Shown: in pieces, positions 1 to 38,281 of the stretch
Numbering within the stretch: the stretch's first letter is position 1
Layout: the number at the start of each line of letters is the position of its first letter
Assembly (NCBI GenBank): GCA_963786935.1
Contig: CAWBAN010000001.1
Span: forward strand, 215,323 to 279,322
Origin: an uncultured bacterium
GTDB lineage: Bacteria > Krumholzibacteriota > Krumholzibacteriia > Krumholzibacteriales > Krumholzibacteriaceae
DNA length: 64,000 nt
Direction: 5' to 3'
The notes under the pieces: model-generated
Database searches by the model: none
What the model was told of the DNA's origin: nothing
Seen by the model: the letters and a program-made list of their open reading frames with translations, nothing else
Made by a program: the position numbers and the translations under genes

Positions 1-2682
1 TCGAGCGAGCAGCTCAAGGAGCTCCCCGTGGACGACGTCGTCTCGGCCGTGGCGCTCAAGAGCGGTATCGTGAAAACGGGAGACGAGCTCCACGTGCGCG
101 GCGGGCGGTCGCAAGAGGTGCAGATGCAGATCGACGGCGTGCCGGTCGACGACCCGCTCGGCGGCTCGATATCGGTCGGGCTTCTCGGCACCGACAACAG
201 CGAGGTCATCACGGGAGGCATGGACGCCGAGTACGGCAACGCGCAGTCGGCGATCATCAACGTGAGCACGCGCGAGGGAGGCAAGAGCTACGAGGGGCAG
301 ATCCGGTACATGACCGACGATTTCGGCCGCTCGGACAAGACATACACGAACTACGACCGGCTCAGCCTCGGATTCGGCGGCCCGACCCCCCTCAAGAACC
401 TCACGTTCTACACGTCGGGCGAAGCGACCTTCCAGGACGGCGACAACTGGTCGATCGCCCCCCGCGAAGAGAAGGAGTTCCTCGGGGGTATGATCAAGTT
501 CACCGAGCGGCAGTTCTCCTCCTATAACGTGCAGGGCAAGCTCGCCTATCAGGTCAATCCGAGGCTCAAGCTCATCGGCGAGGCGATCTACTCGCACTCC
601 GTCGGCAATCCCTACGCGCACAACTGGAACATCGAGGGATACGTCCAGAAGATCTACCGGTTCATGGCGCTCCGGGCGAGCCGCGACCTCTCGTTCCCGG
701 AGGCCCGTTCGTTCGGCTCGTACGTGAGCGTATATCAGGGGGACTGGCTGAACAATGCGCCTCCCCGCGTCGAGTATTATCCGGGCTCGATCGAGGAGCG
801 GCGCCGGACCATCTATCCGATCGTCGTCGGCGCCAAGGTGCGCGATCCGAACGACGCGACGAAGCCGGCCTTCCTCGTCCGGTACGACCATTTCTACGCG
901 CGCATGCTGACCGACGTGTACGGGCGCGAGTCGGAAGTGATCTGGGACGAGGCGATCCTCGACGCGCAGGGCAATCTGGTGCGCCACGAGAGCAAGCTGC
1001 TCTTCGAAGGGTTCCAGAATCCCGAAAGCAAGTTCAGCCATTTCCGGGACGATTCGAGCTACGTGTATTTCAACTCCGCCGCGAACGTCACGACGGGCAC
1101 CTCCGACGACCTCAACCTCAAGGTTTCCATCAACCACAACATCTCGGACGACGTCCTCTATGTGATCAACCTCACACGGCTCCAGTTCAACAGCCTGAAC
1201 ACGGTCGACGGGCAGGATCCCGCGGAGTTCAACACTGCGGGCCTGCCGGGAACGCTGCCGAGCGGATCGTGGCGGTACAGCGGCATCAGCAGCGAGGATT
1301 TCTACACCGATCCGGACAATCCGTATTACGTGACGGCGTACGACTGGCCGGCGTACACGGACCGCACGACCATCGCCTACAACCTGAAGGCGGACATCAC
1401 GTCGAAGAAATGGCAGAACCACCAGTTCAAGACGGGCGTCCAGTTCATCTATAACGACCTCGACGAAAACCAGATCAACTTCCCGGGCCGCGTGCGCCGG
1501 AACGCCGACGGGAGCCTTTCGCAGGGAGGACGGGCGAACACCTTCCATAACTTCAACCCCGAGGCCTCGTACTACGTCCAGGACAAGTGGGCGTATCAGG
1601 GTATGATCGTCAACGGCGGCGTCCGGATCGATTTCTTCTCGCCGGGCAACAACAACGAGATTCTGATCAACTCGAGCGAGATCGACCAGAACGTCGACAA
1701 GTACAAGTTCCAGATCAGCCCGCGGCTCGGCTTCGCGTTTCCGATCACGGACCGCGACAAGTTCCACTTCCACTACGGGCGATTCACGCAGTGGCCGAGC
1801 AGGAACTACCTGTTCAGGACCCAGGACCTGCTCTTCGGATCGGGCGTTCTCGGCAACCCCGACCTCGACGAGGAGCTCACCGTTTCGTATCAGGCCGGCG
1901 TGTCGCACCAGTTCACCGAGTCGCTCGCGGGGCACTTCGTCGTGTTCAACAAGGATATCTTCGGCCTGATCTCCTCGACGCGCGTGCTCGACGAGGAGCT
2001 CGGCATTCAGGGATACCGCTACATCAACAGAACGTACGCGAGCTCGCGCGGTCTCGAGATCAGCTTCGAGAAGATGCGGACCCGCTACGTCGGCGGCGAG
2101 ATTTCGTACACGCTGTCGTACGCGGACGGCGTGGCATCGGACGCGGAGTTCGGCGTCTCGGCGGAAGGGCTCACCCACCTGCCGACGCAGGAGATGCCGC
2201 TCGACTGGGATCAGCGCCATACGCTGAACATCACCCTGAGCCTCCAGGACCAGAACAAGTGGGGCGCGACGGTCGTGTACTCGTACGGGAGCGGGCTCCC
2301 GTGGACGCCCGTCGACCGGTTCGCCCGCCGCCAGGATCCCCTCTGGGAAAACTCGATGCGGCTCCCCGCGACGCACGTCATCAACATTCAGGGCCGAAAG
2401 ATGTTCAGCATCTACGGGCAGGAGCTCATGCTCTTCTTCGAGGGGCGCAACCTCCTCGACGAGGATATCCTGGGTCCGAACGGCGTCGCGCCCGGCGCGT
2501 TTCCCGGCATGCAGAACGCGGCGATGGACGGCGGCTCGTACCTCACCGAGACCGGCCAGTACGGCGGCGCGTACCTGCAGGATATCAACGAAGACGGCGT
2601 CGATGATTTCAATCCGGTCCACGATCCGACGATCTGGGACTCGCGGAAAACGTGGCGCATCGGATTCGGATTCGAGTTCTAG
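1..2682 (+). CDS. TonB-dependent receptor, 5'-truncated at the window edge
   Basis: Frame 1 is open from base 1; the track lists it only from an internal GTG at 28. It has a plug-like N-terminal segment (DDVVSAVALKSGIV...LHVRGGRSQEVQMQIDGVPVDDPL) and a long strand-rich body. The C-terminus ...WRIGFGFEF ends in Phe, as in OM barrels. Confidence 0.85.
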   Translation, partial: SSEQLKELPVDDVVSAVALKSGIVKTGDELHVRGGRSQEVQMQIDGVPVDDPLGGSISVGLLGTDNSEVITGGMDAEYGNAQSAIINVSTREGGKSYEGQIRYMTDDFGRSDKTYTNYDRLSLGFGGPTPLKNLTFYTSGEATFQDGDNWSIAPREEKEFLGGMIKFTERQFSSYNVQGKLAYQVNPRLKLIGEAIYSHSVGNPYAHNWNIEGYVQKIYRFMALRASRDLSFPEARSFGSYVSVYQGDWLNNAPPRVEYYPGSIEERRRTIYPIVVGAKVRDPNDATKPAFLVRYDHFYARMLTDVYGRESEVIWDEAILDAQGNLVRHESKLLFEGFQNPESKFSHFRDDSSYVYFNSAANVTTGTSDDLNLKVSINHNISDDVLYVINLTRLQFNSLNTVDGQDPAEFNTAGLPGTLPSGSWRYSGISSEDFYTDPDNPYYVTAYDWPAYTDRTTIAYNLKADITSKKWQNHQFKTGVQFIYNDLDENQINFPGRVRRNADGSLSQGGRANTFHNFNPEASYYVQDKWAYQGMIVNGGVRIDFFSPGNNNEILINSSEIDQNVDKYKFQISPRLGFAFPITDRDKFHFHYGRFTQWPSRNYLFRTQDLLFGSGVLGNPDLDEELTVSYQAGVSHQFTESLAGHFVVFNKDIFGLISSTRVLDEELGIQGYRYINRTYASSRGLEISFEKMRTRYVGGEISYTLSYADGVASDAEFGVSAEGLTHLPTQEMPLDWDQRHTLNITLSLQDQNKWGATVVYSYGSGLPWTPVDRFARRQDPLWENSMRLPATHVINIQGRKMFSIYGQELMLFFEGRNLLDEDILGPNGVAPGAFPGMQNAAMDGGSYLTETGQYGGAYLQDINEDGVDDFNPVHDPTIWDSRKTWRIGFGFEF

Positions 2683-2714
2683 AGCGCTTCCGGATGACGG
2701 AGGAGGAGTTTCGC

Positions 2715-5201
2715 ATGAATCGCAAGAAGGAATGGGTTGGAAGAGCGGCGGCGCTTCTCGCGATACTCGTGATCGGCGCCCCGGCGTTTGCGAGGAATGA
2801 CGACGCGGCGTGGGTCGCCAAGATGAAGGACATGCCCCGGCAGACCTGGGCGCTCAGCGGGGCGTGGGTCCACAACGTGGGCAACCTCCAGATGAACGTG
2901 ACGAACTGGGGGTGCTTCGGATCGTATCCCGGCTCGACGCTGGCGATGTCCGAGTCGCCGTCCGCGCAGTGGCCGGCGAACTCCGCCGTCGAGTATCTCT
3001 ACATCGCGGGTCTCTGGATCGGCGCCAAGAAGGGCGGCGTTCCGGTCGTGACCACGGCGGCGTACGAGCAGGAGTTCATGCCCGATCCGCTCGATCCCGT
3101 TGCGACGATCTATCGCTCGTTCGAGGGCGCGCTCGGCGGCACGCGCTACCCGAGCCCTCCCGACGACGACAAGGACGGTATGTTCGACGAGGATTGGCTG
3201 AACGGCATGGACGACGACGGGGACGGGCAGATCGACGAGGATTACGCCGCGGTCGGCAAGCAGATGTACTCGTGCTGGTTCACGGACGATCATCCGACCT
3301 CCGTGCAGCGCTACCCCGAGCATACGCCGCTTCACCTGATGGTGCGCCAGGAGAGCTACCAGTGGGAGGAGCCGAAATTCTACAACTTCGTCGGCGCCGA
3401 ATACAAAATCAGGAACACGGGCGTCGAGAGCATCGAGGACCTCTACATCGGATTCTTCGCCGACGGCGACGCGGGCCCGCGGACGCGCGAGCAGTACTGG
3501 CTCGACGACGGGACGGGGCTCTACGAGGACATCGTGTGCGCGCAGAAGGGGGATCGGGTGGTGCCGATCCGCGTCAGCGTCGCGTACTTCTACGACATCG
3601 ACGGGGACGAGGGTCAGACCATGGGATACATGGGGATTCTCTTCCTCGGCCACGATACGGATCCTCTCGGCGAATCGGCGCCGAAGAAGGTCGGTATCAC
3701 CTCCTACCAGAACTTCTCGGGCGATCAGCCGTACGAAAACGGCGGCGATCCCGACAACGATTTCCAGCGCTACGAGCTCCTCACCAAGACCACGCGGGAC
3801 CGCAACCAGGAAGTGCCGAGGGATTATCGAATGCTCATGGCGACGGGGCCGTTCAAGGAGCTCCCGCCCGAGACGACGCTCGTGCTGCAGGTCGCGTTCG
3901 TGTGCGGTCAGGGAATCGAAGGCATGAAGGACAACGCGGCGAGCGCGGCCCTCACCTATCAGGGCAACTGGTTCGACATCGACGGCAACCCGCTGACCGG
4001 CGTGGAAGGCAAGGAAACTCCCGTGCCCGGTCCCGTGAACGGGCTCATCGCCGATTCCTGCGTCGCCGATCTGACCCCCGTCTCGGCGGCGAGAGGGGAG
4101 ATCGTCTGGGTCAACGCCGACTGCCACGAGGAGGAAGCCCTCTGGGCGAACGGCGATTGCAACAAGGGGGACGCCACGTTCGCCGATTACCAGACGGGCG
4201 TCGGCGGGAAGGAGCATCAGGTGAACTGGCTCGTCGGCTCGGCGCCGCCGCCGCCGGTCATGCGCCTCATCCCGGGGGACCACAAGGTCACGCTCCTGTG
4301 GGACAACTTCAGCGAGGTGAGCCCCGACGTGAGCACCCTCGAGTACGATTTCGAGGGCTACCGGATCTGGCGCGCGGACGGATGGGACCGGCCGCTCGGG
4401 ACGAGCGTTCTCACCGGCCCGAACCGCGAGCTCTGGCAGCTCCTCGAGGAGCGCGACCTCGTGAACGGCGTGCCGCCGGACATCAACTTCAAGGCGCCCT
4501 TCTCCGAGGGGGGATGGGAGTACGAACCGCTCATCAACCTCCCGGGCAAGGATGCCTACATCGCATATTTCAAACAGAACGTGTACAACTACCCGATGGA
4601 TGAAGTGCCCTGCCCGCCCGGGCTGGCGCCGCTCGAGTGCGACACGCTCGAAGCCCTCGCCCGGTACGACCTCGGATTCCAGGGCGGACTGAAATACTAC
4701 AAATTCGTCGACGAGAGCGTCCACAACGGGATGCACTACTTCTACGCCGTCACCGCGTACGATCACGTGCTTTCGGCGGGCGTGCCGACGAAGGTCGGCT
4801 ACTTCGGCGATCCGTCGTCGAACTTCCAGTACGTCTCGCCGCTCTCCGACGCGCAGGCGTCCGACACGTACGAGGAGAAGGAAGTCTTCGTGGTTCCGAA
4901 TCCGGCGACGGCGGCCGCGATGGAGCCGTGGCAGCTCGAGCCGAACCAGGACGATCCGACCGGCATCAAGGTGGAATTCAGGAACCTCCCGAGATGCAAC
5001 TCGACCGTGCGCATCTACACGATCGCGGGAGATCTCGTCGAGGTGCTCTATCATGACGGAACGAGCGGAAACGGGACGCTGCCGTGGGATCTCGTCTCGC
5101 GGAACGGGCAGGACGTGACGAGCGGGGTGTACCTGTTCTCCGTGGAGCCCGAAGACGGCAAGTTCTCGAGGACGATCGGGAAATTCGTCGTGATTCGATA
5201 A
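2715..5201 (+). CDS. Large secreted protein with an Asp-rich Ca-binding-like loop, an FN3-like segment and a T9SS type-A C-terminal sorting domain; central part has no recognised family
   Basis: From track ORF 2652..5201. I moved the start to ATG 2715, which sits 6 nt after GGAGGAGGAG (2699-2708). Signal peptide AALLAILVIGAPAFA with no lipobox Cys. Acidic loop DDDKDGMFDEDWLNGMDDDGDGQIDED. FN3-like stretch VTLLWDNFSE...GYRIWRADGW. The last ~100 aa fit the Por-secretion tail pattern (VVPNPA...GVYLFSVEP...GKFVVIR). Confidence 0.75.
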   Translation: MNRKKEWVGRAAALLAILVIGAPAFARNDDAAWVAKMKDMPRQTWALSGAWVHNVGNLQMNVTNWGCFGSYPGSTLAMSESPSAQWPANSAVEYLYIAGLWIGAKKGGVPVVTTAAYEQEFMPDPLDPVATIYRSFEGALGGTRYPSPPDDDKDGMFDEDWLNGMDDDGDGQIDEDYAAVGKQMYSCWFTDDHPTSVQRYPEHTPLHLMVRQESYQWEEPKFYNFVGAEYKIRNTGVESIEDLYIGFFADGDAGPRTREQYWLDDGTGLYEDIVCAQKGDRVVPIRVSVAYFYDIDGDEGQTMGYMGILFLGHDTDPLGESAPKKVGITSYQNFSGDQPYENGGDPDNDFQRYELLTKTTRDRNQEVPRDYRMLMATGPFKELPPETTLVLQVAFVCGQGIEGMKDNAASAALTYQGNWFDIDGNPLTGVEGKETPVPGPVNGLIADSCVADLTPVSAARGEIVWVNADCHEEEALWANGDCNKGDATFADYQTGVGGKEHQVNWLVGSAPPPPVMRLIPGDHKVTLLWDNFSEVSPDVSTLEYDFEGYRIWRADGWDRPLGTSVLTGPNRELWQLLEERDLVNGVPPDINFKAPFSEGGWEYEPLINLPGKDAYIAYFKQNVYNYPMDEVPCPPGLAPLECDTLEALARYDLGFQGGLKYYKFVDESVHNGMHYFYAVTAYDHVLSAGVPTKVGYFGDPSSNFQYVSPLSDAQASDTYEEKEVFVVPNPATAAAMEPWQLEPNQDDPTGIKVEFRNLPRCNSTVRIYTIAGDLVEVLYHDGTSGNGTLPWDLVSRNGQDVTSGVYLFSVEPEDGKFSRTIGKFVVIR

Positions 5202-5235
5202 TGATGATGAACGTTCTCTTTGAGGAGGTTGCGTG

Positions 5236-6177
5236 ATGAAGCGTAGGATTGGCATGGGGATTCTGCTGATTGCGCTGGTCCCCGCTCTGGCGTCGGCGAA
5301 TACGAAACCGTTCGAGAAGGTCGGTACGTATTCGGCGCAGTTCCTGAAGATCGGCGTGTCGGCGAGAGCGGCGGGGATGGGAAGCGCCTTCACGGCCGTC
5401 GCCAACGACGCGACAGCCATGTACTGGAATCCCGCGGGGATGGTCGAGCAGACGCGCACGCAGGTGACGCTGAACACGGTCGTCTGGCCGGCCGACATCG
5501 ACGTCTATTTCGCGGGCGCCATATTCAGCACGCCGTATCTCCCCGGATCGTTCGGCGTGAGCGCGCGGGCGCTCACGATGGACCCGCAGGAAGAGAGAAC
5601 GATCTACATGCCCCAGGGAACGGAGCGGTACTTCGACGCCGGCGACATGTCGTTCGGCCTGTCGTACGCGACGTATTTCACCGACCGGTTCTCGGCGGGC
5701 ATCACGACCAACTTCATCCATATGGGTCTCGCCGACAAGAGCGTCGAGTCGCTCGCGATCGATTTCGGCCTCATCTACCGCATCGGTATCCGCGGCATGC
5801 GCCTCGGCATGATGCTTCAGAGCCTCGGCGGGGAAGTCGATTTCGACAACCGCGCGTCCAAGCTTCCGACCCTCTTCAAGGTCGGGCTCTCGGTCGACGC
5901 GCTGCGCACCGGCGCCCATACCCTGCTCGCGACGGGGGAGTTCTCGCACCCGGTCGACAACAAGGAGCGCATGAACGTCGGCATGGAGTACACGTTCAAC
6001 CAGTTCTTCATGATCCGGTCGGGATACAACATCGGCTACGACACGCAGAAGCTCGCGTGGGGCGTCGGATTCAGGATCGATACGAGCCAGACGTCCGATA
6101 TCGGCCTTGATTATTCCTGGGAGGATCTCGATTATCTCGGCACGAGCCACCGGTTCAGCATGAATTTCAGCTACTGA
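5236..6177 (+). CDS. PorV/PorQ-family outer-membrane beta-barrel protein
   Basis: GAGGAGG at 5222-5228 precedes ATG 5236; GTG 5233 is an alternative start. Signal peptide present. Family-typical N-terminal motif FLKIGVSARAAGMGSAFTAVANDATAMYWNPAGM. Alternating strand pattern, C-terminus ...FSMNFSY. Confidence 0.7.
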   Translation: MKRRIGMGILLIALVPALASANTKPFEKVGTYSAQFLKIGVSARAAGMGSAFTAVANDATAMYWNPAGMVEQTRTQVTLNTVVWPADIDVYFAGAIFSTPYLPGSFGVSARALTMDPQEERTIYMPQGTERYFDAGDMSFGLSYATYFTDRFSAGITTNFIHMGLADKSVESLAIDFGLIYRIGIRGMRLGMMLQSLGGEVDFDNRASKLPTLFKVGLSVDALRTGAHTLLATGEFSHPVDNKERMNVGMEYTFNQFFMIRSGYNIGYDTQKLAWGVGFRIDTSQTSDIGLDYSWEDLDYLGTSHRFSMNFSY

Positions 6178-6190
6178 GGGATCGCATTCC

Positions 6191-7714
6191 GTGTCTCTCG
6201 AGCTCCGCATACGTTTGCGTGCGCGTGCTCTCGTCGCCATCCTGCCGGTATTGCTCGTGCTCGCGCCGGCAGGCGCCGTCCGGTGCGATCCCGTCCGCGG
6301 GGAGGGCAGCTTCGAGTTTTTCGTCGACATCGCCTCCCTGCCGTCCGGCGGGCCCGGCACGATCCAACTCATCCAGATTTCCGTTCCCACGAAAGAGCTC
6401 CAGTACGTCGAGAAGTCCGGCTCCTTCACCGCCGAAGTGCGATTCTCGATCAAGCTGACGTCGGGCGACGAGGTCGTCCACGAAAAGTTGTTCCAGATGC
6501 GCGATTCCCGCGACGAGATGCCCGCGGTGAAGGATCTTTCTTCGTTCATCTGCCATATCGATTCCTGCGCCGTCGGTCCGGGCGCCTACCGGCTCACCGT
6601 CAAGGTCGAGGATCTCCAGCGCAGGAAGCGCACCCTCCTCGGCATCCTGCGGCGGACCTATCATTCGTCCGAGGTGAAGAACGCGGAGTTCGATGTTCGG
6701 CCGTTCCCCGCCGACGGCATCGCACTGGCCGACCCGATCCTCGTGTGGGAGTCCGACGGCAGCGGGCGGTTCATCCCGAATCCGATGCAGATCTACGGTC
6801 TCCGGAAGGATACCTTGAGCGTGTACGTGCAGGCGGCGGTTCCGGCGGCGGTTCGGGACGATTCGCTCGACGTGCGGTTCCTGATTTCCCGCGACACGGG
6901 CGAGCAGATGGAGGAAGCGCGGTTCAGGATCCCCGTGAAGGAGAACCGGAGCTCGTTCCTGCGCATGACGGATCTCGCGGCCTACCCGTCGGGCTCATAC
7001 CGGCTGACGGTCGAGACGAGCGCGCCGGGCGGGCTGTTCGCGTCGTCGGGCAAGGATTTCGCCGTCGTCTGGGAGCTCGTCAACTGGCAGAAGCCGTTGC
7101 GCGACATCGCGTTCGAAGCGCGTCTCGTCCTGAACAGCAAGCAGTATGACGAGTTCTCGCGGATGGATCTCGGCGAGCAGGAAGCCTTCATGCGCGCCTT
7201 CTGGAAGAAGCTCGATCCGACGCCGCAAACCGCGGCGAACGAGATCTTCGACAAGTTCGTCGCCCGCGTCAGATACGCCGACGCCCAGTACGGCACGTAC
7301 GAGCGGGGGGCGCTCACCGACCGCGGATTCATTCTGATCCGATTCGGCCGGCCCGACGATATCGTCAACCAGCCCCTTCCGCAGAGCCGGGACGATCTGT
7401 ACGAGGGGCTCGACAAGATTATCTCGGAATACAAGATCATCTCCGACGGCATCACGACGGAGAAGTCGGTGAAGGACCTCCGTCCCATCATCATATCCCC
7501 CGAGAAGCAGCGCGCGACGAGAGGCGACATCGGCAGCGATACCGGTTCGTTCGAGGTCTGGACCTACGCCTTCAAGGGGGATCCCCTCCTTCCGGGGGAC
7601 TCGGGAATGACGGTCGACCAGGGCCTCAGGTTCCTGTTCATCGACAAGGACGGGTACGGTTCGTACCAGCTCGTCGGCTCCTCGGAGGAGATGACGGGGG
7701 ACTCCCGGGACTAG
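6191..7714 (+). CDS. GWxTD domain-containing secreted protein (paralogue 1)
   Basis: GTG start 13 nt after the previous stop, with a signal peptide. The C-terminal region FWKKLDPTPQTAANEIFDKFVARVRYADAQY...GALTDRGFILIRFGRPDDI matches the GWxTD-domain pattern (FW..LDPTP.T..NE...GWxTDrG..i..G.Pd). Same architecture as ORF 16722..18035. Confidence 0.7.
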   Translation: MSLELRIRLRARALVAILPVLLVLAPAGAVRCDPVRGEGSFEFFVDIASLPSGGPGTIQLIQISVPTKELQYVEKSGSFTAEVRFSIKLTSGDEVVHEKLFQMRDSRDEMPAVKDLSSFICHIDSCAVGPGAYRLTVKVEDLQRRKRTLLGILRRTYHSSEVKNAEFDVRPFPADGIALADPILVWESDGSGRFIPNPMQIYGLRKDTLSVYVQAAVPAAVRDDSLDVRFLISRDTGEQMEEARFRIPVKENRSSFLRMTDLAAYPSGSYRLTVETSAPGGLFASSGKDFAVVWELVNWQKPLRDIAFEARLVLNSKQYDEFSRMDLGEQEAFMRAFWKKLDPTPQTAANEIFDKFVARVRYADAQYGTYERGALTDRGFILIRFGRPDDIVNQPLPQSRDDLYEGLDKIISEYKIISDGITTEKSVKDLRPIIISPEKQRATRGDIGSDTGSFEVWTYAFKGDPLLPGDSGMTVDQGLRFLFIDKDGYGSYQLVGSSEEMTGDSRD

Positions 7715-7731
7715 GTTTGTCACCGAGTTTG

Positions 7732-7768
7732 CGCGTCGTCCCGGAACCGCGCCGGACGCGGAATTTTA
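7732..7768 (+). terminator. Possible weak intrinsic terminator after the GWxTD gene
   Basis: Imperfect hairpin: cgcgt(cgtc)ccgg, loop aaccgcg, then ccgg-acgcg, followed by gaatttta. The stem is bulged and the T-tract is short. Confidence 0.3.
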
Positions 7769-7771
7769 GGG

Positions 7772-7801
7772 TTGACAAGGGGGTATGGCATCGATTATTT
7801 T
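7772..7801 (+). promoter_or_regulatory. Sigma70-type promoter candidate for exbB-exbD-exbD-tonB
   Basis: TTGACA at 7772-7777, an 18-nt spacer, then TATTTT at 7796-7801. It lies in an AT-richer 240-nt spacer about 155 nt upstream of exbB. Confidence 0.4.
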
Positions 7802-7954
7802 GCTCACGATAATAAGCAGGTGCACGTGGGATTGGGAGCGTCGCGGATCATTCCCGCTCTTCGCACATCGAGAGCAGCGCCCGGTCGCGCCGAATGATCC
7901 ATCGAATCGAGATCAATTATCAAACCGCCAACAGTTGCAGGAGGAGCGCGTGGT

Positions 7955-8815
7955 ATGGCACAGAAGAACCGTTCGACGTTCGGCCTAATCGTTCTCTTGA
8001 CCCTTGCTGTTGTCCTTTGCTTCGCGATGGCGACCGCGAATTCGCAGGAGTCCGCCGCCCCCACGACGCCGGCTCAGACCGCCGTTTCGGGGCAGGATTC
8101 GCTCGGCATGGCGAAGGGCGATTCGATGAGCATCGTCAAGAAGATCGACGACATGAAGGAACGCGCTCGCCTCGGATGGTTCTATAACGTCCGGTACAGC
8201 GGGCTCGGCGATTTCTACGTGCGCGGCGGCGTGTTCATGCATCCGCTGCTCGCGTGCTCGATCATCGCGCTCGTGTTCATCCTCGAGAGGCTCTTCACCC
8301 TGTCGCGCGCGCGCGTCGACGTGAAGAATCTCATGAACCGCGTGAGCCAGGCGCTCCGCGCCGAAGGCATCGACGCCGCCCTCAAGGTCTGCGAGGGGAC
8401 GCGCGGTCCCATCGCGGCGGTTATCCACTCCGGTCTGCTCCGCGCTGGCCAGGGTCCCGACGCGGTGAAGGAAGCCATCGAGACGGCCGGCTCGATCGAG
8501 ACGTCGTTCCTCGAGCGCGGACTCGTGGTGCTCGCCACCGTATCGACCGTGGCGCCGATGTTGGGCTTCCTCGGAACGGTGTCGGGTATGATGAACGCCT
8601 TCGCCGCCATCGCGGCCGCGGAGCAGGTGAGCGCGAAGATCGTGGCGTCCGGTATCGAAGAGGCGCTGATCACGACGATCGCAGGCCTCTGTATCGCTAT
8701 CCCGGCGAGCGTCGGCCACGCGTACTTCGTATCCCAAATCGAGCGCTTCGTTCTCGAGATGGAAGAGGCCTCGGCCAACCTCGTGAACGAGCTCGTGGAA
8801 CTCAACAAGAAGTAA
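7955..8815 (+). CDS. exbB: MotA/TolQ/ExbB proton-channel family protein
   Basis: GGAGGAG precedes the ATG. Three C-terminal TM segments carry the family pattern ...TVAPMLGFLGTVSGMMNAFAAIA...IEEALITTIAGLCIAIPA. It is followed by two ExbD genes and TonB. Confidence 0.9.
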   Translation: MAQKNRSTFGLIVLLTLAVVLCFAMATANSQESAAPTTPAQTAVSGQDSLGMAKGDSMSIVKKIDDMKERARLGWFYNVRYSGLGDFYVRGGVFMHPLLACSIIALVFILERLFTLSRARVDVKNLMNRVSQALRAEGIDAALKVCEGTRGPIAAVIHSGLLRAGQGPDAVKEAIETAGSIETSFLERGLVVLATVSTVAPMLGFLGTVSGMMNAFAAIAAAEQVSAKIVASGIEEALITTIAGLCIAIPASVGHAYFVSQIERFVLEMEEASANLVNELVELNKK

Positions 8816-8832
8816 GCGAGCGGGTATCTGCT

Positions 8833-9243
8833 ATGGCAATAAAAAGGACCAAACTAGAACCGTCGATTCCCGCGGCTTCGCTGTCGGATATCATCTTCCT
8901 TCTCCTCATCTTCTTTCTGGTGACCACGACGATGTCCGTGGAGAAGGGGCTCCCGATGTCCCTTCCGGGAAAGCAGTCGCAGACGGTGAAGCTCAAGCAG
9001 GACGCGGTGTTCCATATTTCGGTTATGGCCGACGGAACGATATCGACCAAGGAGACCGGTCCGTTGCCTCTCGGCCGCGTGCGGCCGCTCATCGAAGAGA
9101 AGCTCATGGCGAACGACAAGCTCGTGATCGTCATCGAAACGCACCCCGACGCGAACTACGGGATCATGATCGACGTCCTCGACGAGCTCCGGCTCGCCAA
9201 GGCGAACCGGATTTCGCTGAAGACGACGGCGACGGGGGCCTAA
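8833..9243 (+). CDS. exbD: ExbD/TolR biopolymer transport protein
   Basis: In-frame ATG 8833 inside track ORF 8254..9243. N-terminus IPAASLSDIIFLLLIFFLVTT, then a periplasmic domain ...LVIVIETHPDANYGIMIDVLDELRLA. Confidence 0.9.
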   Translation: MAIKRTKLEPSIPAASLSDIIFLLLIFFLVTTTMSVEKGLPMSLPGKQSQTVKLKQDAVFHISVMADGTISTKETGPLPLGRVRPLIEEKLMANDKLVIVIETHPDANYGIMIDVLDELRLAKANRISLKTTATGA

Positions 9244-9265
9244 GGCGTAAAGGAAGGAATATTCC

Positions 9266-9676
9266 TTGAAGATCAAGACGAGACAAAAGGTCAAGAACGA
9301 GATCCCGACCGCCTCGATGGCCGATATCATCTTCAACCTGCTCCTCTTCTTCATGGTGACGAGCATCTTCAAGATGGAGGAAGGGCTTCCGATACAGCTT
9401 CCGAGGGCGAAGTCGGGGACCGATACGCAGCGTCAGCAGATCATGCACATCTGGGCGGACCGGTTCGACCGGATCAGCATCAACGACAAGCTGGCCCGGG
9501 TCGAGCACATCCAGGGCATCGTGGCGAGCATGCTGGAAGAGAACCGCGCCATTATCGTGGCGTTCAACGTCGATCAGCGCGCGAAGTACAGGGTTGTATC
9601 CGATATCATGGAACAGCTGAAGGAAGCGAACGCGATCAACGTGACGTTCACGTCGCTTTACGAGTCGACACCTTAA
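9266..9676 (+). CDS. exbD: ExbD/TolR biopolymer transport protein (second copy)
   Basis: TTG start after AAGGAAGGA. N-terminus IPTASMADIIFNLLLFFMVTSIF...; C-terminal part ...AIIVAFNVDQRAKYRVVSDIMEQLKEA. Confidence 0.85.
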   Translation: MKIKTRQKVKNEIPTASMADIIFNLLLFFMVTSIFKMEEGLPIQLPRAKSGTDTQRQQIMHIWADRFDRISINDKLARVEHIQGIVASMLEENRAIIVAFNVDQRAKYRVVSDIMEQLKEANAINVTFTSLYESTP

Positions 9677-9694
9677 GCGCAAAGGGGAATCAGC

Positions 9695-10330
9695 GTGGCC
9701 CTCATCGCTGTCGCAAATCAGGAATTCAAGAACAAGTACAACTCGTACCTTCGCGGGTCGCTGTACGTTGTGCTTGCGATCCATATGATTCTCTTCTATA
9801 TCACCCCGACCTTCAAGTTCAAGCCGTACGTGCTCCGTGAGCAATACTTCGAGGCGGTCGAGCTTCCGACATCGTTCGAGCTTCCGCCGCCGCCGAAGGA
9901 AGTGTCGGCTCCCGTTGTACCGATCGAGGCCGCCGAGGGGGATGAGGACGCTTCGGACGCGGACGCATTCGCGCCGACGAGCTACAGCAACATCGACGAA
10001 GTGCCGATGCCGCCGCCCCCGTCGACCGAACAGGCGCAGGAGTTCTACGCGTTCGACGAGGCGCCCGTGCTCATCAAGTCCGTCGCTCCGAGATATCCCG
10101 ACCTCGCCCGCCAGGCGGGCATCGAGGGAACGGTGCTCCTCAACGTGCTCGTCGGCGACGACGGGAAGGTGCTCCAGGTGAGCGTCATCCAGTCGGATGT
10201 GACTCCCGCGATGGAGAAGGCGGCGATGGAAGCCGCGAAGCAGTTTATGTTCAAGCCGGCCAAGCAGCGAACGATGCCGGTCAGGGCCCGTATGGCGGTG
10301 CCGATCAGGTTCAAGCTCCACGGGAACTAG
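9695..10330 (+). CDS. tonB: Energy transducer TonB
   Basis: N-terminal TM, a Pro/Glu-rich linker (ELPPPPKEVSAPVVPIE...PMPPPPS) and a TonB C-terminal domain (PRYPDLARQAGIEGTVLLNVLVGDDGKV...KPAKQRTMPVRARMAVPIRF). Confidence 0.9.
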   Translation: MALIAVANQEFKNKYNSYLRGSLYVVLAIHMILFYITPTFKFKPYVLREQYFEAVELPTSFELPPPPKEVSAPVVPIEAAEGDEDASDADAFAPTSYSNIDEVPMPPPPSTEQAQEFYAFDEAPVLIKSVAPRYPDLARQAGIEGTVLLNVLVGDDGKVLQVSVIQSDVTPAMEKAAMEAAKQFMFKPAKQRTMPVRARMAVPIRFKLHGN

Positions 10331-10362
10331 CGGCTCGACCGATCGAGCGGAACGAAATTGAA

Positions 10363-10392
10363 CGCCCGGCTCGCCACAGCCGGGCGTTTTTT
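10363..10392 (+). terminator. Rho-independent terminator of the exbB-tonB operon
   Basis: Perfect 9-bp stem cgcccggct / agccgggcg, 6-nt loop, then TTTTTT (10387-10392). Confidence 0.85.
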
Positions 10393-10592
10393 ATATGGGG
10401 CTCGATTCCCTCTGGCGGTGGGGAAGCGATTATGACACAATGATCCGTCGCCGCGCTCGCCCGCCACGGCGGCGCCGGCGGAGGGCCGGCGGCGCCGGGG
10501 CGACAATTAATGAAACTCCGCGGCGGTTCCGACGTAAGAATGAAGATAGTATGGTCTTTCGAAACCGGTTACGCAAAGGGAAGGTAAGCACG

Positions 10593-11942
10593 ATGCGTGA
10601 GAGGAAATGCCGTTCGGGATCGGCCGCGCTCGCGATCGCGGCGTTCGTGTTTTCGCTGCTCCCGGCCGCGCTGTGTCCGGCCCAGGAAACCGTCTACGGC
10701 CTCGAGCAGTGCATCGATATCGCCCAGAAGAGCAACCCGGAGATCGCGATCTCGGGCGAGAACTACCGGAAGGCCGAGGGGAACCTGCTCTTGAATTACG
10801 GAAACCTGCTGCCGAATTTCAACCTCGCCTTCTCGACGGGGCACCGGTACTACGGGCCGTCGTCGGTGCAGATCGACGAGTCGGGTCGGCCCGTCCAGAG
10901 CGATGGATTCGATTACGAGGATTACGGCTTCCGTCTCTCGTCGGACATCACCCTCTTCGACGGGGGAGGCAACATCAGCCGGATTCGCTCGGCGATGTAC
11001 AACCGCGACGCCGCCCGCGAAGCGCTCCGGTACCGGCGCGACTATATCGCGGCGAGCGTCATCCGGGCCTACTACGACCTCGTCCGCGCCCGGATGCTCC
11101 TCAAGGTGGAGAAGGAAAGCGTCGAAGCCGCGCGGAAGAACCTCGAGCGCACCGAGGCGCTCCTCCAGGTCGGTTCGGCGACGCGCGCCGACGTGCTCAA
11201 GGCGAAGGTGCGGCATTCCAACACGCGGCTCACCCTGATACAGGTGGAACAGGGCGCGGAGATCGCGAAGCAGGATCTCCTCGCGTTTCTCAAGATGGAC
11301 GGACGCCAGGCGTTCGAGGTCGACACGACGATGACGATCGAGTTCAAGGACATCGACGCCGACGCCGAGATCCGGTACGCGATGACCGCGCGCTCCGATC
11401 TCAAGAGTCTCGAGCACTCGATCAAATCGGCGAAGTCCGACGTTACGTCGGCGCGGAGCGGATGGATGCCCACCCTCGGCGCGTCGTTCAACTACTACTG
11501 GAACGACCGGAAAATGGCGGAGGATCTGAACTTCTTCCAGAACGAGTACTCGTGGGCCGTCACGGGCTACCTGAGCTTCGACATATTCGACCGCTTCCAG
11601 ACGAGCTCGAGCTACCGAATCGCGAAGGCGGATGCCCGGATCGCCGAATACAACCTCGACAAGGCGCAGCTCGACGCGGCGAACCAGGTCAGGAAGCTCA
11701 TCCTCACGATCACGCAGGCGCGGGAACGGATCACGGTGGCGAGCGAGACCGTCGAGCAGGCGAACGAGGATCTGCGGCTCGCCGAGGAGCGCTATCGCGT
11801 CGGGGCCGGCACGATGCTCGAGACGATCGACGCGCTCGTCGCCGTCACGCAGGCGAAGGCCGCGGTCATCGAGGCGAAGCGCGACTTCCTCATCGCGACG
11901 GCGGACCTCGCCGTCGCCACGGGAAAGCAGATTTACCGGTAA
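10593..11942 (+). CDS. TolC-family outer-membrane efflux protein
   Basis: From track ORF 10395..11942. I prefer ATG 10593 after AAGGGAAGG because it yields a signal peptide ([22 protein letters not shown]). ATG 10551 is an alternative. Two coiled-coil repeats are typical of TolC ([15 protein letters not shown]..., ...[33 protein letters not shown]). Confidence 0.85.
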
Positions 11943-11965
11943 CGACTTCGAGGAGGGAGCGTCAG

Positions 11966-12661
11966 ATGCTGATCGAGGCCGCAGGCATCAAGAAGATATA
12001 CGAGGTGGGGGTCGTGCAGATCGAGGCGCTCGTCGGGGTCGATCTCGCGGTCGCCCCGAACGAGTACGTCGCGATCATGGGGCCCTCGGGATCGGGAAAA
12101 TCGACCTTCATGAACATCCTCGGCTGCCTCGACACGCCGACGGAAGGGACGTACCGCCTGAACGGCAATCTCGTGAGCAATCTCGGGGACGACGAGCTCG
12201 CGCGGATCAGGAACAAGGAGATCGGCTTCGTGTTCCAGACGTTCAATCTCCTGCCGCGCGCGACGGCGCTGCAGAACGTCGAGCTCCCGCTCGTGTACGG
12301 GGGCGTTTCCGCGGCGGAGCGCCGCGAACGGGCGATGGAAGCGCTCCGGGACGTCGGCCTCATCGACCGTGCCGCGCACCGCCCGAACGAGCTCTCCGGA
12401 GGGCAGCGGCAGCGCGTGGCGATCGCCCGCGCGCTCGTCAACAATCCGTCGCTCATCCTCGCCGACGAGCCGACCGGCAACCTCGACAGCCGGACGGGCG
12501 AAGAGATCATGCTGATTTTCAAGAAGATTCACGAGGCCGGCAACACGATCATGATCGTCACGCACGAGGAGTACATCGCCGAGCACACGCAGCGCATCGT
12601 GCGCCTGCTCGACGGGAACATCGCGTCCGACGTGAGGGTCGCGGCGGGAAAGCGCTCGTGA
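11966..12661 (+). CDS. ABC transporter ATP-binding protein (MacB/LolD-type)
   Basis: In-frame ATG 11966 after GGAGGGAG inside track ORF 10607..12661. Walker [11 protein letters not shown]-loop, signature [15 protein letters not shown], Walker [13 protein letters not shown]. Confidence 0.92.
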
Positions 12662-12731
12662 TCGAGCCGCGCGCCGGCGCGGACGCGTCGTGCGGGGGCG
12701 CGCGCGCCCGTTCTATCCGCAAGGGGGGACC

Positions 12732-14081
12732 ATGCAGAAATTGAGGAAACGGTATTTCGTCTTCATCGGCGTCGCGGCGCTCGTCGCGGCGCTCGTGATC
12801 GTCAACCTGCGGGCGCGCGAGAAGCGGGCCCTCGCCGTGCAGACCGAGGACGTCGCCAAACGCGACATCACCATGGTGATATCGGCCTCGGGGAGCGTTC
12901 GCCCGAAGCGCAAGGTCGATATCAGCGCGAGCAGCATCGGCAAAGTGACGCGCGTGGCCGTGAAAGAGGGGGAGGTCGTCCGGAAGGGGCAGTTCCTCCT
13001 CCAGATCGATCCCGTCGAGCTCGAAACGACCGTCGCGCGGATCCGGGCGATGCTCGAGGCCGCGAAGGCGAACGAGAAGCAGGCGATCGCCCAGGCGGAG
13101 CAGGCGAAAAACGACTACGAGCGCTCGAAAACGCTCCTCGAAGGGGGACATCGCACCGCGCAGGAGGTCGAGGCGTCGAAGACGAACTGGGACGTCGCGA
13201 CCGCGCGGCTTGAAGCGGTCGGGCAGGAGATCTCCCAGTACAAGGCGAACCTCGAGAGCGCGCAGCACAGCCTCAAGGAGGTGACGATCGTCGCCCCGAT
13301 GTCGGGGATCGTCACGCGGCGGAACGTCGAGGAGGGCGAGATCGCGATCATGGGGACGCTCAACAATCTCGGCACCGTGCTCCTCACGATCGCCGATCTC
13401 TCGACGATCGAGACCGAGATCGAGGTCGACGAGACGGAAGTGACGCATATGAAGATCGGCGACAAGGCCAAGGTGACGCTCGACGCGTTCCCCGACACGT
13501 CGTTCACGGGAGAGGTGACCGAGATCGGGAACAGCCCCATCGTCTCGGGCGCCTCGGCGGCCCAGCAGGGGGTCGATTTCAAGGTCGTCGTCACGATTCA
13601 CGGCTCGATTCCGAACGTGCGGCCCGGCCTTTCGGCCGACGCGGAGATCACCGTCGCGGAAGAGAATGACGCGCTGTCGATCCCGATCCAGAGCCTCACG
13701 GCGCGGCGGAAGCGCGACCTGAAGGGATCCGGCGCGGTCGCCGACTCGACGGGGAAGGCGGACGCGAAGGACACGGCGGATGCGGCGAAGCCGGCGGCCC
13801 CGGCGGCCCCGTCCGCCGCGGGGACGGATACGTCGAAATCGGGGGAGGACGAAACCGAGGTCGAGGGCGTGTTCGTCGTCAAGAATTCGAGGGCCGAGTT
13901 CCGTCCCGTCAAGGTGGGCATCTCGAGCCAGAAGTTCTTCGAGGTCACCGCGGGGCTCGCGGAAGGGGAGAAGGTCGTCAGCGGCAATTTCAAGGCGATC
14001 CGGGAGCTCAAGGACGGGCAGCGCGTGAAGATCTCCGGAAAGTCCGAAGCGGGCGCCAAGGACAAGGAAAAGGCGAAGTAG
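12732..14081 (+). CDS. Efflux periplasmic adaptor subunit (HlyD/MacA family)
   Basis: ATG 12732 after AAGGGGGGA. N-terminal TM, a lipoyl/hairpin region with a coiled coil (EAAKANEKQAIAQAEQAKNDYERSK...) and a beta-barrel region. A low-complexity Ala/Pro/Asp insert lies before the C-terminal domain. Confidence 0.85.
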   Translation: MQKLRKRYFVFIGVAALVAALVIVNLRAREKRALAVQTEDVAKRDITMVISASGSVRPKRKVDISASSIGKVTRVAVKEGEVVRKGQFLLQIDPVELETTVARIRAMLEAAKANEKQAIAQAEQAKNDYERSKTLLEGGHRTAQEVEASKTNWDVATARLEAVGQEISQYKANLESAQHSLKEVTIVAPMSGIVTRRNVEEGEIAIMGTLNNLGTVLLTIADLSTIETEIEVDETEVTHMKIGDKAKVTLDAFPDTSFTGEVTEIGNSPIVSGASAAQQGVDFKVVVTIHGSIPNVRPGLSADAEITVAEENDALSIPIQSLTARRKRDLKGSGAVADSTGKADAKDTADAAKPAAPAAPSAAGTDTSKSGEDETEVEGVFVVKNSRAEFRPVKVGISSQKFFEVTAGLAEGEKVVSGNFKAIRELKDGQRVKISGKSEAGAKDKEKAK

Positions 14082-14106
14082 GGAGAGCGGCCCTTCGCCG
14101 GCAACC

Positions 14107-15336
14107 ATGCTCATACTCGAGGGAATACGAATCGCGTTGCGCGCCCTCCGCGAAAACAAGCTGCGTACCTCGCTCACGCTGCTCGGCAACATCGTCGGGA
14201 CGATGTCGGTCATCGCAGTCGTATCGCTCATCAACGGCATCGATCATTACGTGAGCGAGGAGGTCGCGGAGCAGGGGAGCAACGTCTTCACGATCGAGCG
14301 CATCAACTTCTTCGAGGCGATCACGGACCTCGACGCGTTCCTCGAAGCGCTTGCCCGGAACAAACCGCTCCGACTGAACGATGTCGAATATCTCAAGCGG
14401 TCGGTCCCCTCGAGCTCGGTGGTCGGCGCCTCCATCAGCGGATCGGAGCGCGTCACCTTCGGAGAATCGTACGTCGATAACATCGAGATCAAGGGGCGCT
14501 CCGAGGAGTACCCGTTGCTCGAGAAGGCGGATCTCGCGGCGGGGGCGCACATCTCGCGGCTCGAGGTGCAGCGGAGCAACGCCGTCGCGGTCATCGGCTG
14601 GGACGTCTATCAGCATTTCTTCGCCGGGCGTAGCGCGATCGGAAAGAAGATCAAGATCGGGGATCGCCACTTTCTCGTCATCGGAGTCGTCAAGAACCTC
14701 GGTAGCGTCCTCGGCCAGTCGCGAAACCGGTTCGTATACGTTCCCGTGACGACCTACCTCAAGATGTACGGATCGCGGCGCTCGATCGAGATCAAGGTCA
14801 GGGCCGCCGATATCCGATTCATGCAGCAGGCGATCGACGAGGCGACGATGGCGATGCGTATCAGGCACCGGCTGCGTCCCCTCGAGAAGGACGATTTCAG
14901 CGTCACGACCTCCCAGCAGCTCATTTCCCTCTGGCAGGGCATCTCGAAGGCGATCTTCAGCGCCCTCATTTTCATCGTCTCGATATCGCTCGTCGTCGGC
15001 GGAATCGTTCTCATGAACGTGATGCTCGTCTCGGTGACGGAACGCACGCGCGAGATCGGCGTCCGGAAGGCTCTCGGCGCCCGCCGGTCTAACATCATCT
15101 GGCAGTTCATCGTCGAATCGATCACCCTTTCCCTCGTCGGGGGGATCATCGGGATCGTCCTCGGCTTCACGATCGCCGCCGTCATTTCGCTCGTTTCGCC
15201 GCTTCCGTATCTCATCGCGCCGTGGTCGATCGCGGCGGGGCTCGCGGTGACCTTCTGCATCGGTCTGATATTCGGAACGTACCCGGCGAATCGGGCGGCG
15301 AGGCTCGATCCCGTGGTGGCGCTCCATTACGAGTAG
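14107..15336 (+). CDS. ABC transporter permease, FtsX/MacB-type (subunit 1)
   Basis: TM1, a large periplasmic domain, then three C-terminal TMs with the family motif VSVTERTREIGVRKALGARRSNI and ...TYPANRAARLDPVVALHYE. Confidence 0.88.
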   Translation: MLILEGIRIALRALRENKLRTSLTLLGNIVGTMSVIAVVSLINGIDHYVSEEVAEQGSNVFTIERINFFEAITDLDAFLEALARNKPLRLNDVEYLKRSVPSSSVVGASISGSERVTFGESYVDNIEIKGRSEEYPLLEKADLAAGAHISRLEVQRSNAVAVIGWDVYQHFFAGRSAIGKKIKIGDRHFLVIGVVKNLGSVLGQSRNRFVYVPVTTYLKMYGSRRSIEIKVRAADIRFMQQAIDEATMAMRIRHRLRPLEKDDFSVTTSQQLISLWQGISKAIFSALIFIVSISLVVGGIVLMNVMLVSVTERTREIGVRKALGARRSNIIWQFIVESITLSLVGGIIGIVLGFTIAAVISLVSPLPYLIAPWSIAAGLAVTFCIGLIFGTYPANRAARLDPVVALHYE

Positions 15337-15344
15337 GTGGCACG

Positions 15345-36976: not shown

Positions 36977-36977
36977 T

Positions 36978-37730: not shown

Positions 37731-37746
37731 TTGCTTGATAAATCAT

Positions 37747-37775
37747 TTGACTGCGGGGGAAGTTTTCATTAGACT
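37747..37775 (+). promoter_or_regulatory. Sigma70-type promoter candidate for secG and tRNA-Leu
   Basis: TTGACT (37747-37752), a 17-nt spacer, then TAGACT (37770-37775), in the AT-rich tpiA-secG spacer. Confidence 0.45.
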
Positions 37776-37802
37776 ACTGTTTTTGAAAAGGCTGGTGGAG
37801 GA

Positions 37803-38252: not shown

Positions 38253-38281
38253 GAGGTTCCCCCTTCGAGATACCGAATTGT

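Follow-up and report, generated by a model that had tools for sequence, protein, structure and literature searches.

A conserved gene module joins a TonB-dependent transporter, a predicted all-beta protein and a PorV-like barrel in phyla related to Bacteroidota

The 64,000-nt stretch of contig analyzed here (the window) comes from Candidatus Krumholzibacteriota, and its first 10.4 kb (63% G+C) contain eight genes, all on the + strand, that encode a TonB-dependent receptor, an 828-aa protein (p828), a PorV-like barrel, a GWxTD protein and an ExbB-ExbD-ExbD-TonB energizer set. We found that these genes represent a real gene module that is conserved across at least seven little-studied phyla related to Bacteroidota, and our conservation survey indicates that its universal core is formed by the receptor, p828 and the barrel, with the GWxTD gene as an add-on and the motor genes as a facultative part. 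We propose, with a probability of about 0.5, that the module is an uptake device in which a transporter works with a co-receptor kept at the cell surface by a dedicated PorV-family barrel. An earlier note, made from the sequence of the window alone, had listed the eight same-strand genes, each of which we found where it was placed, and had read the first four as receptor, type IX secretion system (T9SS) cargo, PorV-like barrel and GWxTD protein. That reading is partly supported: its central idea withstands the three refuting conditions set out in the note, whereas the limits it gave the module and the absence of any counterpart have to be revised.

The conserved neighborhood became apparent when six-frame open reading frames (ORFs) of 83 loci were searched with the window's eight proteins. 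Fifty-four p828-family genes had enough flanking DNA for context counts; at least 21 of them had both a receptor gene upstream and a PorV-like barrel gene downstream, six had only one of the two (partly as an artifact of ORF calling), and 27 were dispersed or tandem paralogues. Linkage of the trio holds down to 25-35% identity and was seen in Krumholzibacteriota, Eisenbacteria, Cloacimonadota, Calditrichota, KSB1 and Zixibacteria. The p828 family, whose range was extended by a scan of species-representative genomes and a second protein search from a distant member, is wider than the trio, and beyond Krumholzibacteriota it also occurs in Eisenbacteria, Zixibacteria, Cloacimonadota, Calditrichota, KSB1, Fermentibacteria and Fibrobacteraceae. 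Copies with receptor/barrel context are present in every major clade of a p828 distance tree, with context-free copies nested among them, indicating that the context is ancestral. The neighborhood is far beyond chance and recurs in about half of the family loci over several phyla, and the four-gene neighborhood described in the earlier note is conserved in relatives as far as its core trio is concerned.

The order of the genes is not fixed. In Cloacimonadota it is receptor-ExbB-ExbD-ExbD-TonB-p828-barrel, and finding the same parts in shuffled order argues for a functional linkage; in a KSB1-like metagenome-assembled genome (MAG) it is exbB-exbD-(239-aa ORF)-receptor-p718-barrel. In Calditrichota and KSB1, two lipoprotein genes are interspersed among those of the trio, and acidic residues, which in Bacteroidota are a mark of surface lipoproteins, follow the lipid Cys. 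Judged from these sequences, the products might belong to a utilisome-like complex as surface lipoproteins. In two of the loci (L084:12341-16043 and L085:12415-16375), the lipoproteins that flank the PorV-family gene are ~300 and ~600 aa long and match no family model.

If the genes were neighbors by descent only, with no joint function, such linkage would be fortuitous. Long-range synteny does exist in these genomes: in Eisenbacteria the receptor-p828-barrel-GWxTD block is followed directly by pgk-tpiA-secG-tRNA (L030:15033-17687), and in the window pgk, tpiA and a tRNA gene lie ~26 kb downstream (35780-38363), with a 159-aa ORF (37773-38249) where secG would be expected. The linkage nevertheless persists over six or more phylum-level groups, at identities of 25-35% and with changed gene order, and gaps of 13-34 nt indicate co-transcription, so that we regard synteny without function as very improbable. 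If the arrangement is an old synteny, it would have been split in Krumholzibacteriota when genes were inserted for the TonB motor, an ABC exporter, Opp permeases, mreBC-PBP2-rodA, lgt and glycolysis genes.

Proteins encoded by the module

By its sequence, the receptor is a TonB-dependent transporter outside the SusC/RagA family. The 893-aa fragment encoded in the window matches the TonB_dep_Rec barrel (PF00593) with 63.1 bits (cut-off 27), and Plug (PF07715) scores 21.7 bits in this truncated copy and 23.9 bits, equal to the cut-off, in the orthologue L004:6738-9965, which also carries CarboxypepD_reg (57.7 bits) and the barrel (62.3 bits); in the L084 and L085 receptors, Plug was recorded without a weak or faint mark. 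Full-length orthologues are ~1000-1100 aa long and consist of a signal peptide, a CarboxypepD_reg N-terminal domain, a TonB-box-like motif, a plug and a 22-strand barrel. An alignment of the N-termini of 16 orthologues revealed a conserved ‘EIIVEAE’ ahead of the plug, at the place expected for a TonB box, and ‘HVRGGR’ inside the plug. The receptor therefore has the 22-strand barrel domain, plug and TonB-box-like motif of a TonB-dependent transporter. No SusC/RagA model was among the NCBIfam matches of the 893-aa fragment at E values up to 0.1, which comprised weak siderophore and other TonB-receptor models only and no informative equivalog, and a PDB sequence search with the receptor found no relative.

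p828 would be, on its sequence and structure model, the founding member of an uncharacterized exported all-beta family. As the earlier note had described, it has a signal peptide (ending AFA) without a lipobox Cys and an Asp-rich loop, which corresponds to an invariant stretch at residues 148-176; the further claim that its central ~600 aa belong to no recognizable family was borne out over residues 1-750, which no Pfam or NCBIfam model matches. We collected 602 p828 homologues, the best 120 of which are 53-87% identical to p828, ~825 aa long and without a Pfam domain or functional name; the named homologues among these 120 come from Candidatus Krumholzibacteriota or Latescibacterota. An exhaustive profile search returned 550 cluster representatives (50% identity) at E<=1e-30, many of which are 520-650 aa long and share only the N-terminal ~400 residues and the tail. 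For annotation, this means that a large family has a ~400-aa domain for which there is no family model.

The AlphaFold2 model of p828 is all-beta (pLDDT 72.6, pTM 0.58) and places a supersandwich, which carries the 148-176 stretch, at about residues 50-420, followed by FN3/Ig-like domains. Foldseek matched it only to N-terminal sandwich domains of GH116/GH94/GH65/GH63-type enzymes and to FN3 arrays, with TMq of ~0.2 (0.22), and the model lacks the catalytic (alpha/alpha)6 domain of the matched glycoside hydrolases and phosphorylases. Because these matches are generic and the catalytic domain is missing, the function of p828 is not readable from its fold. No SusD model matched p828, which, with its all-beta predicted fold and no lipobox Cys, is not SusD-like, and a profile search of PDB sequences returned the PorU tail alone (6za2, E 0.25). 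Identification of p828 as a PorU-like sortase or a PorZ-like propeller was dropped on the predicted fold, an all-beta sandwich; neither gingipain-like peptidase nor beta-propeller structures were among its 50 best PDB fold matches.

Several paralogues occur away from the module. Four tandem p828-family paralogues of ~930-980 aa each are encoded in one MAG (L032:3906-15502) with no receptor or barrel gene nearby. No consistent theme linked the genes found around context-free paralogues, which encode multihaem cytochromes, TPR proteins, a two-component system and a C69 peptidase. Two such paralogues, L010:1012-2442 and L014:5637-7262, adjoin multihaem cytochromes (cytochrome c554-like and NrfA-type c552, respectively), and this adjacency in two unrelated loci may be a coincidence or a clue to what some paralogues bind. 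When ten family representatives were scanned for domain fusions, FlgD_ig tails were found on two short members, and the sole further match was in P0244, where an ABC-transporter ATPase fragment precedes the domain, perhaps because of a merged gene call.

The C-terminal tail of p828 appears to be of the T9SS/FlgD_ig sandwich class, of which it is formally a borderline member. In the AlphaFold2 model, a linker of low confidence (residues 730-751) precedes a C-terminal sandwich (752-828), with strands at 725-728, 753-756, 762-769, 774-781, 789-791, 804-812 and 820-826; a seven-stranded sandwich after a flexible linker, the T9SS type A fold, is thus predicted in a model of moderate confidence. The tail scored 14.5 bits on TIGR04183 (cut-off 23) over residues 748-820 of 828, which is the correct position, and 14.7 bits on FlgD_ig (cut-off 27), and it aligned locally with the PorZ model's C-terminal domain (E 2.2e-8). 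Among 28 relatives, PF18962 matched one at E<=0.05 and FlgD_ig matched 12; the KSB1 orthologue passes TIGR04183 (25.6 bits versus 23), and two relatives carry the NCBI name ‘T9SS type A sorting domain’ protein. The earlier assignment of a T9SS sorting tail to the 828-aa protein is in keeping with the predicted fold and with the KSB1 orthologue, whereas the window copy itself falls short of the model's cut-off. None of the T9SS core genes SprA, GldK/L/M/N, PorU and PorV was among the window ORFs scanned.

The tail is also the best-conserved region of p828 (mean column identity 0.79); in distant pairs, tail identity is 0.63-0.77 versus 0.53-0.57 for the body, and dispersed and tandem context-free paralogues retain the same tail. 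A 510-aa protein encoded elsewhere in the window (46700-48232, - strand) has a FlgD_ig tail scoring 43.5 bits and reaches 74 of the 90 bits required by the model ‘PDIAV motif lipoprotein’. Its ordinary tail shows that the genome encodes conventional tailed cargo too, and the difference between 14.7 and 43.5 bits on FlgD_ig indicates that the p828 tail is a specialized variant and not merely a weak copy. Stronger constraint on the tail than on the rest of p828, next to a barrel that is the most conserved protein of the module, would fit a permanently bound interface, unlike a signal that is cleaved and discarded. What the earlier note called cargo thus resembles a permanently docked component more closely.

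The barrel is, by its model scores, a 14-strand outer-membrane barrel of the PorV/PorQ family that forms a separate branch and is neither PorV nor PorQ. It scored 182.2 bits on the family model NF033709 (cut-off 90) over residues 33-313 of 314, and its Calditrichota orthologue scored 184.1 bits, whereas none of the equivalog cut-offs was reached (PorQ NF033711, 78.4 bits versus 220; PorV NF033710, 65.3 versus 250; PorV2, 66.4 versus 325). FadL/Toluene_X (PF03349) gave 17.9 bits against a cut-off of 29.7, over residues 46-91 only, so that the PorV/PorQ signature noted previously prevailed over FadL/OmpP1. The candidate of a FadL-type lipid channel is ruled out by these scores (182 versus 18 bits). 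The single PDB sequence match was Flavobacterium johnsoniae PorV (6h3i_F, E 9.4e-5), with no FadL chain. Identity of the barrel to its orthologues (93, 80, 71, 68, 51 and 45%) exceeded that of the receptor and of p828 in every locus compared; receptor and p828 diverge at similar rates across orthologous loci, and the GWxTD protein diverges fastest.

The GWxTD protein, recognized by TIGR04514 (76 bits, cut-off 28) and PF20094 (34.8 bits, cut-off 26.9), has the motif G-A-L-T-D in this lineage and is the least conserved member of the module. Of 29 loci with sufficient sequence downstream, 19 have its gene after the barrel gene; the gene is missing from the Krumholzibacteriota locus L002 and from L078/79, L084/85, L074 and L081, and the Cloacimonadota, Calditrichota, KSB1 and Zixibacteria versions of the module lack it. 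Judged by this sequence survey, the gene is a lineage-specific accessory of Krumholzibacteriota and Eisenbacteria, so that its inclusion in the module by the earlier note holds in these two phyla and fails in the other four and in L002. The AlphaFold2 model (pLDDT 61) contains two Ig-like sandwiches, the C-terminal GWxTD domain not being resolved (pLDDT <50), and Foldseek found only Ig-like domains of RbmA and of transglutaminases. Further copies were noted: a second GWxTD gene of the window (16722-18035, 437 aa, PF20094 43 bits, ~25% identity to the first) lies right after ABC exporter genes, and L028 and L042 have second copies a few kb downstream of TonB. A distant relative, P0345 (JGI sample 3300050821, 7.2-kb contig), unites a GWxTD domain with a BlaR1-type Peptidase_M56 sensor, and its gene lies beside one for a BlaI/Penicillinase_R repressor; this fusion suggests that the domain may act in binding or sensing outside the cytoplasm. 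Our literature search found no paper containing ‘GWxTD’.

The energizer proteins are encoded together and identified by MotA_ExbB (109 bits), ExbD (83.8 and 71.5 bits) and TonB_C (74.8 bits), each well above its cut-off, and the two ExbD copies share 31-33% identity (tblastn). At many Eisenbacteria and Calditrichota loci the motor genes are not in the neighborhood. The ExbB-ExbD-ExbD-TonB set, which the earlier note called private, is thus better described as a frequent but facultative neighbor of the trio.

A proposed uptake role and its alternatives

In the mechanism we favor, p828 would reach the periplasm by Sec, as its signal peptide suggests, and would cross the outer membrane by way of its C-terminal sandwich, most likely through a SprA-type T9SS translocon. 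The tail would be kept and bound to the PorV/PorQ-family barrel encoded next to it, so that p828 stays on the cell surface, where its predicted Ca-binding supersandwich and FN3-like body would capture a ligand, possibly a glycan or other polymer, and pass it to the adjacent TonB-dependent transporter, which would be opened by the ExbB-ExbD-ExbD-TonB motor of the same cluster. The GWxTD protein would be a lineage-specific accessory, probably periplasmic or ligand-sensing. Gene identities, conserved linkage, fold classes and the conservation pattern were established directly, and we infer localization, docking, direction of transport and substrate.

Several observations were counted in favor of this proposal. 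The susD gene sits after susC, and the p828 gene similarly starts 32 nt after the transporter gene, which speaks for a co-receptor, as does the extracytoplasmic-looking, all-beta build of p828 without a catalytic domain. The dispersed and tandem paralogues with the same tail, which are typical of diversifying surface binders, point in the same direction. The transporter appears intact (N-terminal extension, TonB-box-like motif and plug in orthologues), and the lipoproteins of the Calditrichota and KSB1 versions recall Sus-type utilisomes, both of which are consistent with uptake. In Porphyromonas, PorZ sits on PorQ and PorU on PorV; the p828 tail is like these retained tails and unlike an ordinary FlgD_ig tail, which suggests docking. 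A recent survey, which had Caldithrix abyssi as one of its representatives, reported SprA in phyla of the Fibrobacterota-Chlorobiota-Bacteroidota (FCB) group other than Chlorobiota (PMC12611786), making T9SS-type delivery plausible, at least in Calditrichota. Cognate carrier barrels are encoded beside their cargo in Flavobacterium (PMC12618676, PMC10994853). Further precedents for single features of the proposal are the locus plan of Slam/type 11 secretion (PMC8406197) and, for a FadL-like barrel holding a surface protein, the BAM complex of Bacteroidota (PMC12578637).

Other results weigh against the uptake proposal. The tail of p828 in the window and those of most of its relatives miss the curated T9SS type A cut-off, and the structure model of p828 is of moderate confidence only (pLDDT 72.6, pTM 0.58). 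p828 is also unusually conserved for a substrate-binding partner; SusD-like proteins diverge fast. Neither a regulator nor a riboswitch that would point to a nutrient was found, RNA elements upstream of the transporter gene being absent from the window and from six orthologous loci. The position of the Eisenbacteria module among housekeeping genes (pgk-tpiA-secG) could indicate a role in envelope biogenesis.

A housekeeping-like context and very high conservation would also be expected if p828 and the barrel were general secretion machinery, a counterpart of the T9SS attachment complex (PorU-PorV/PorZ-PorQ) that processes or anchors all tailed cargo; the transporter beside them would then have some linked function in the envelope. 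The adjacency of porU and porV is an established pattern in Bacteroidota, the best matches of the p828 tail are the tails of PorZ and PorU, and in Cloacimonadota and KSB1 ordinary tailed proteins come after the barrel gene. The p828 model, however, shows no gingipain-like peptidase fold as in PorU and no beta-propellers as in PorZ, tandem arrays such as the four copies in L032 are rare for parts of a machinery, and the tight linkage to a transporter is left unexplained. We therefore consider this alternative unlikely.

The transporter might instead work outward, exporting with ExbB-ExbD-TonB energy p828-family proteins whose tails the PorV-like barrel would take over outside. Oar of Myxococcus xanthus presumably has an N-terminal CarboxypepD_reg domain like that of the receptor orthologues. 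That transporter, motor, tailed protein and barrel stay together despite changed order, and that the p828 tail is atypical for ordinary T9SS cargo, would fit such export, and there is a precedent in Oar, a TonB-dependent transporter needed to secrete a protein, the PopC protease (PMC6434023). Set against this are the small size of a plugged 22-strand barrel relative to a folded beta protein of 800 aa, the many p828 paralogues that have the same tail but lack a transporter of their own, the loci of Eisenbacteria and Calditrichota without a nearby motor, and the judgment that TonB in comparable type 11 secretion system (T11SS) loci powers uptake, not export (PMC8406197). On balance, TonB-dependent export seems rather unlikely.

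An autonomous two-partner route, in which the PorV-family barrel itself exports p828-family proteins via their C-terminal sandwich, much as Slam/T11SS barrels recognize TbpB-type cargo, without a SprA translocon and p828 then serves the transporter, is, in our judgment, unlikely. The locus does share the plan of T11SS loci, in which receptor and TonB are joined by a 14-strand barrel and by a cargo that is targeted through its C-terminal domain (PMC8406197), tail and barrel are the two best-conserved elements, and the tail diverges from ordinary cargo tails. PorV is known, though, as a SprA-bound carrier and not as a channel (PMC10994853), SprA has been reported in FCB phyla other than Chlorobiota, C. 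abyssi being among those surveyed (PMC12611786), and proteins with ordinary tails in the same genomes need a general route. Taken more broadly, the idea that in these candidate phyla a PorV-family barrel, alone or with a TonB-powered transporter, provides a SprA-independent route of export and display for proteins with this conserved C-terminal sandwich is unlikely; if it were true, the route would stand either as a minimal or ancestral form related to type IX secretion or as a system that had converged on type 11, with TonB powering or serving it. Were either export reading correct, the module would bear on the evolution of type IX secretion.

Locus layout and the surrounding window

Coordinates in the window are listed in Table 1. 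The intergenic gaps from the receptor gene to the GWxTD gene are 32, 34 (with the barrel ATG at 5236) and 13 nt, and the 240-nt spacer between the GWxTD gene and ExbB contains a promoter candidate; these four spacings, given in the earlier note, were reproduced from the ORF coordinates, and its TTGACA promoter candidate was located as a consensus match. This candidate agrees with the consensus at 10 of 12 positions, in a region that has 4 such sites versus 0.8 expected from shuffles. The terminator reported after TonB is present as a G+C-rich hairpin of 12 pairs with a T-run, at 10360-10389 and not at 10363-10392.

Table 1. Coordinates of the module and of the exporter genes that follow it in the 64,000-nt window
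Feature	Position	Strand	Basis or remark
TonB-dependent receptor	1-2682	+	5'-truncated by window edge; PF00593
p828 (828 aa)	2715-5201	+	signal peptide; no family model for residues 1-750
PorV-like barrel (313-314 aa)	5233/5236-6177	+	NF033709
GWxTD protein (507 aa, signal peptide)	6191-7714	+	TIGR04514, PF20094
Promoter candidate, sigma-70-like, TTGACA-18-TATTTT	7772-7801	+	consensus match only
ExbB/TolQ-family proton channel (286 aa, long N-terminal extension)	7955-8815	+	PF01618 109 bits
ExbD/TolR-family protein 1	8839-9243	+	PF02472 83.8 bits
ExbD/TolR-family protein 2	9266-9676	+	PF02472 71.5 bits
TonB (211 aa; Pro-rich linker, TonB_C)	9695-10330	+	PF03544 74.8 bits, TIGR01352 67.7 bits
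Intrinsic-terminator-like hairpin, then TTTTATAT; block ends here	10360-10396	+	12 pairs, 8 G-C
OEP	10395-11942
ABC ATPase	11954-12661
HlyD-type adaptor	12690-14081
Two MacB_PCD/FtsX permeases	14107-16616

A MacAB-TolC-like set (10395-16616) begins right after the terminator. The same five genes are found downstream of TonB in the Krumholzibacteriota locus L002, indicating that synteny reaches beyond the eight-gene block. Elsewhere in the window there are two genes for rhomboid-family proteases (24457-25707 and, on the - strand, 38967-39629), the second of which scores 39.8 bits on the rhombosortase model, below the cut-off of 84. The product of 50108-51709 is a metallo-beta-lactamase/beta-CASP ribonuclease whose best NCBIfam match is ‘type VII CRISPR Cas14’ (224 bits versus a cut-off of 800), a score so far under the cut-off that it points to an ordinary beta-CASP RNase.

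Comparison with known systems

In Bacteroidota (SusCD) and in pathogens (TbpAB), nutrient capture depends centrally on TonB-dependent transporters that work with surface co-receptors. To our knowledge, nothing comparable has been described for the many FCB phyla without cultured members that abound in sediments, soils and digesters, and if the uptake proposal is correct, the module would be their version of a transporter with a co-receptor. Our literature search found no paper on a PorV-family gene linked to a TonB-dependent receptor and none linking Krumholzibacter* with T9SS. The earlier statement that the system has no characterized counterpart holds for homology but not for design, for which Slam/T11SS, SusCD and PorZ-PorQ/PorU-PorV offer analogues.

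Like SusC/SusD of Bacteroidota, the module combines a transporter with a carboxypeptidase-regulatory-like N-terminal extension, a partner gene directly downstream and energization by TonB, and the additional lipoproteins predicted for the Calditrichota and KSB1 version resemble those of SusCD utilisomes. It differs in that the partner is no lipoprotein and shows neither a SusD fold nor a match to a SusD model, in that the transporter has no SusC/RagA match, and in that a separate PorV-family barrel is proposed to hold p828. The Slam/T11SS loci of Proteobacteria (TbpA-TbpB-Slam and the hrp locus; PMC8406197) share with it a receptor, TonB, a surface or secreted co-receptor with a C-terminal targeting domain and a dedicated 14-strand barrel. 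The barrel described here, however, is of the PorV/PorQ (FadL-like) type and not DUF560, the predicted sandwich has seven strands in place of the eight-strand TbpB-type barrel, and the hosts belong to another superphylum; neither DUF560 (PF04575) nor TbpB-type models were among the Pfam matches of the barrel or p828. Since there is no homology, the likeness would be one of convergence.

The combination of a T9SS-type C-terminal sandwich with a genetically linked cognate barrel is shared with PorZ-PorQ, PorU-PorV and type B cargo that uses PorP/SprF (PMC10994853, PMC12618676), and the tail of p828 is closest to those of PorZ and PorU. Its body is unrelated to PorU, PorZ and SprB, the barrel scores below the PorV and PorQ equivalog cut-offs, and none of the T9SS pairs is known to be wired to a TonB-dependent transporter and motor. 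We know of no PorV-family barrel that takes part in the Oar/PopC system. Oar of M. xanthus (PMC6434023) resembles the transporter of the module in that a TonB-dependent transporter is tied to the fate of an exported protein, although PopC lacks a C-terminal sorting sandwich. In the BAM complex of Bacteroidota (PMC12578637), the extracellular loops of BamG, likewise a FadL-like 14-strand barrel, hold a surface protein, BamH; BamG differs in belonging to the FadL/Toluene_X family and in being bound to BamA, and the BamG model gave 18 bits (cut-off 250) with the Calditrichota barrel orthologue L084 and no match with the window barrel at E values up to 0.1.

Under the uptake proposal, the barrel would be the first of the PorV family that is dedicated to one protein family and wired to a transporter, and the current view of one general PorV carrier for all type A-like tails (PMC12618676) would be widened. 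By analogy, the module resembles the SusCD and Slam/TbpB/TbpA loci in organization without being homologous to them, and it may quite plausibly embody a known principle, a transporter with a displayed co-receptor, built here from T9SS-type parts.

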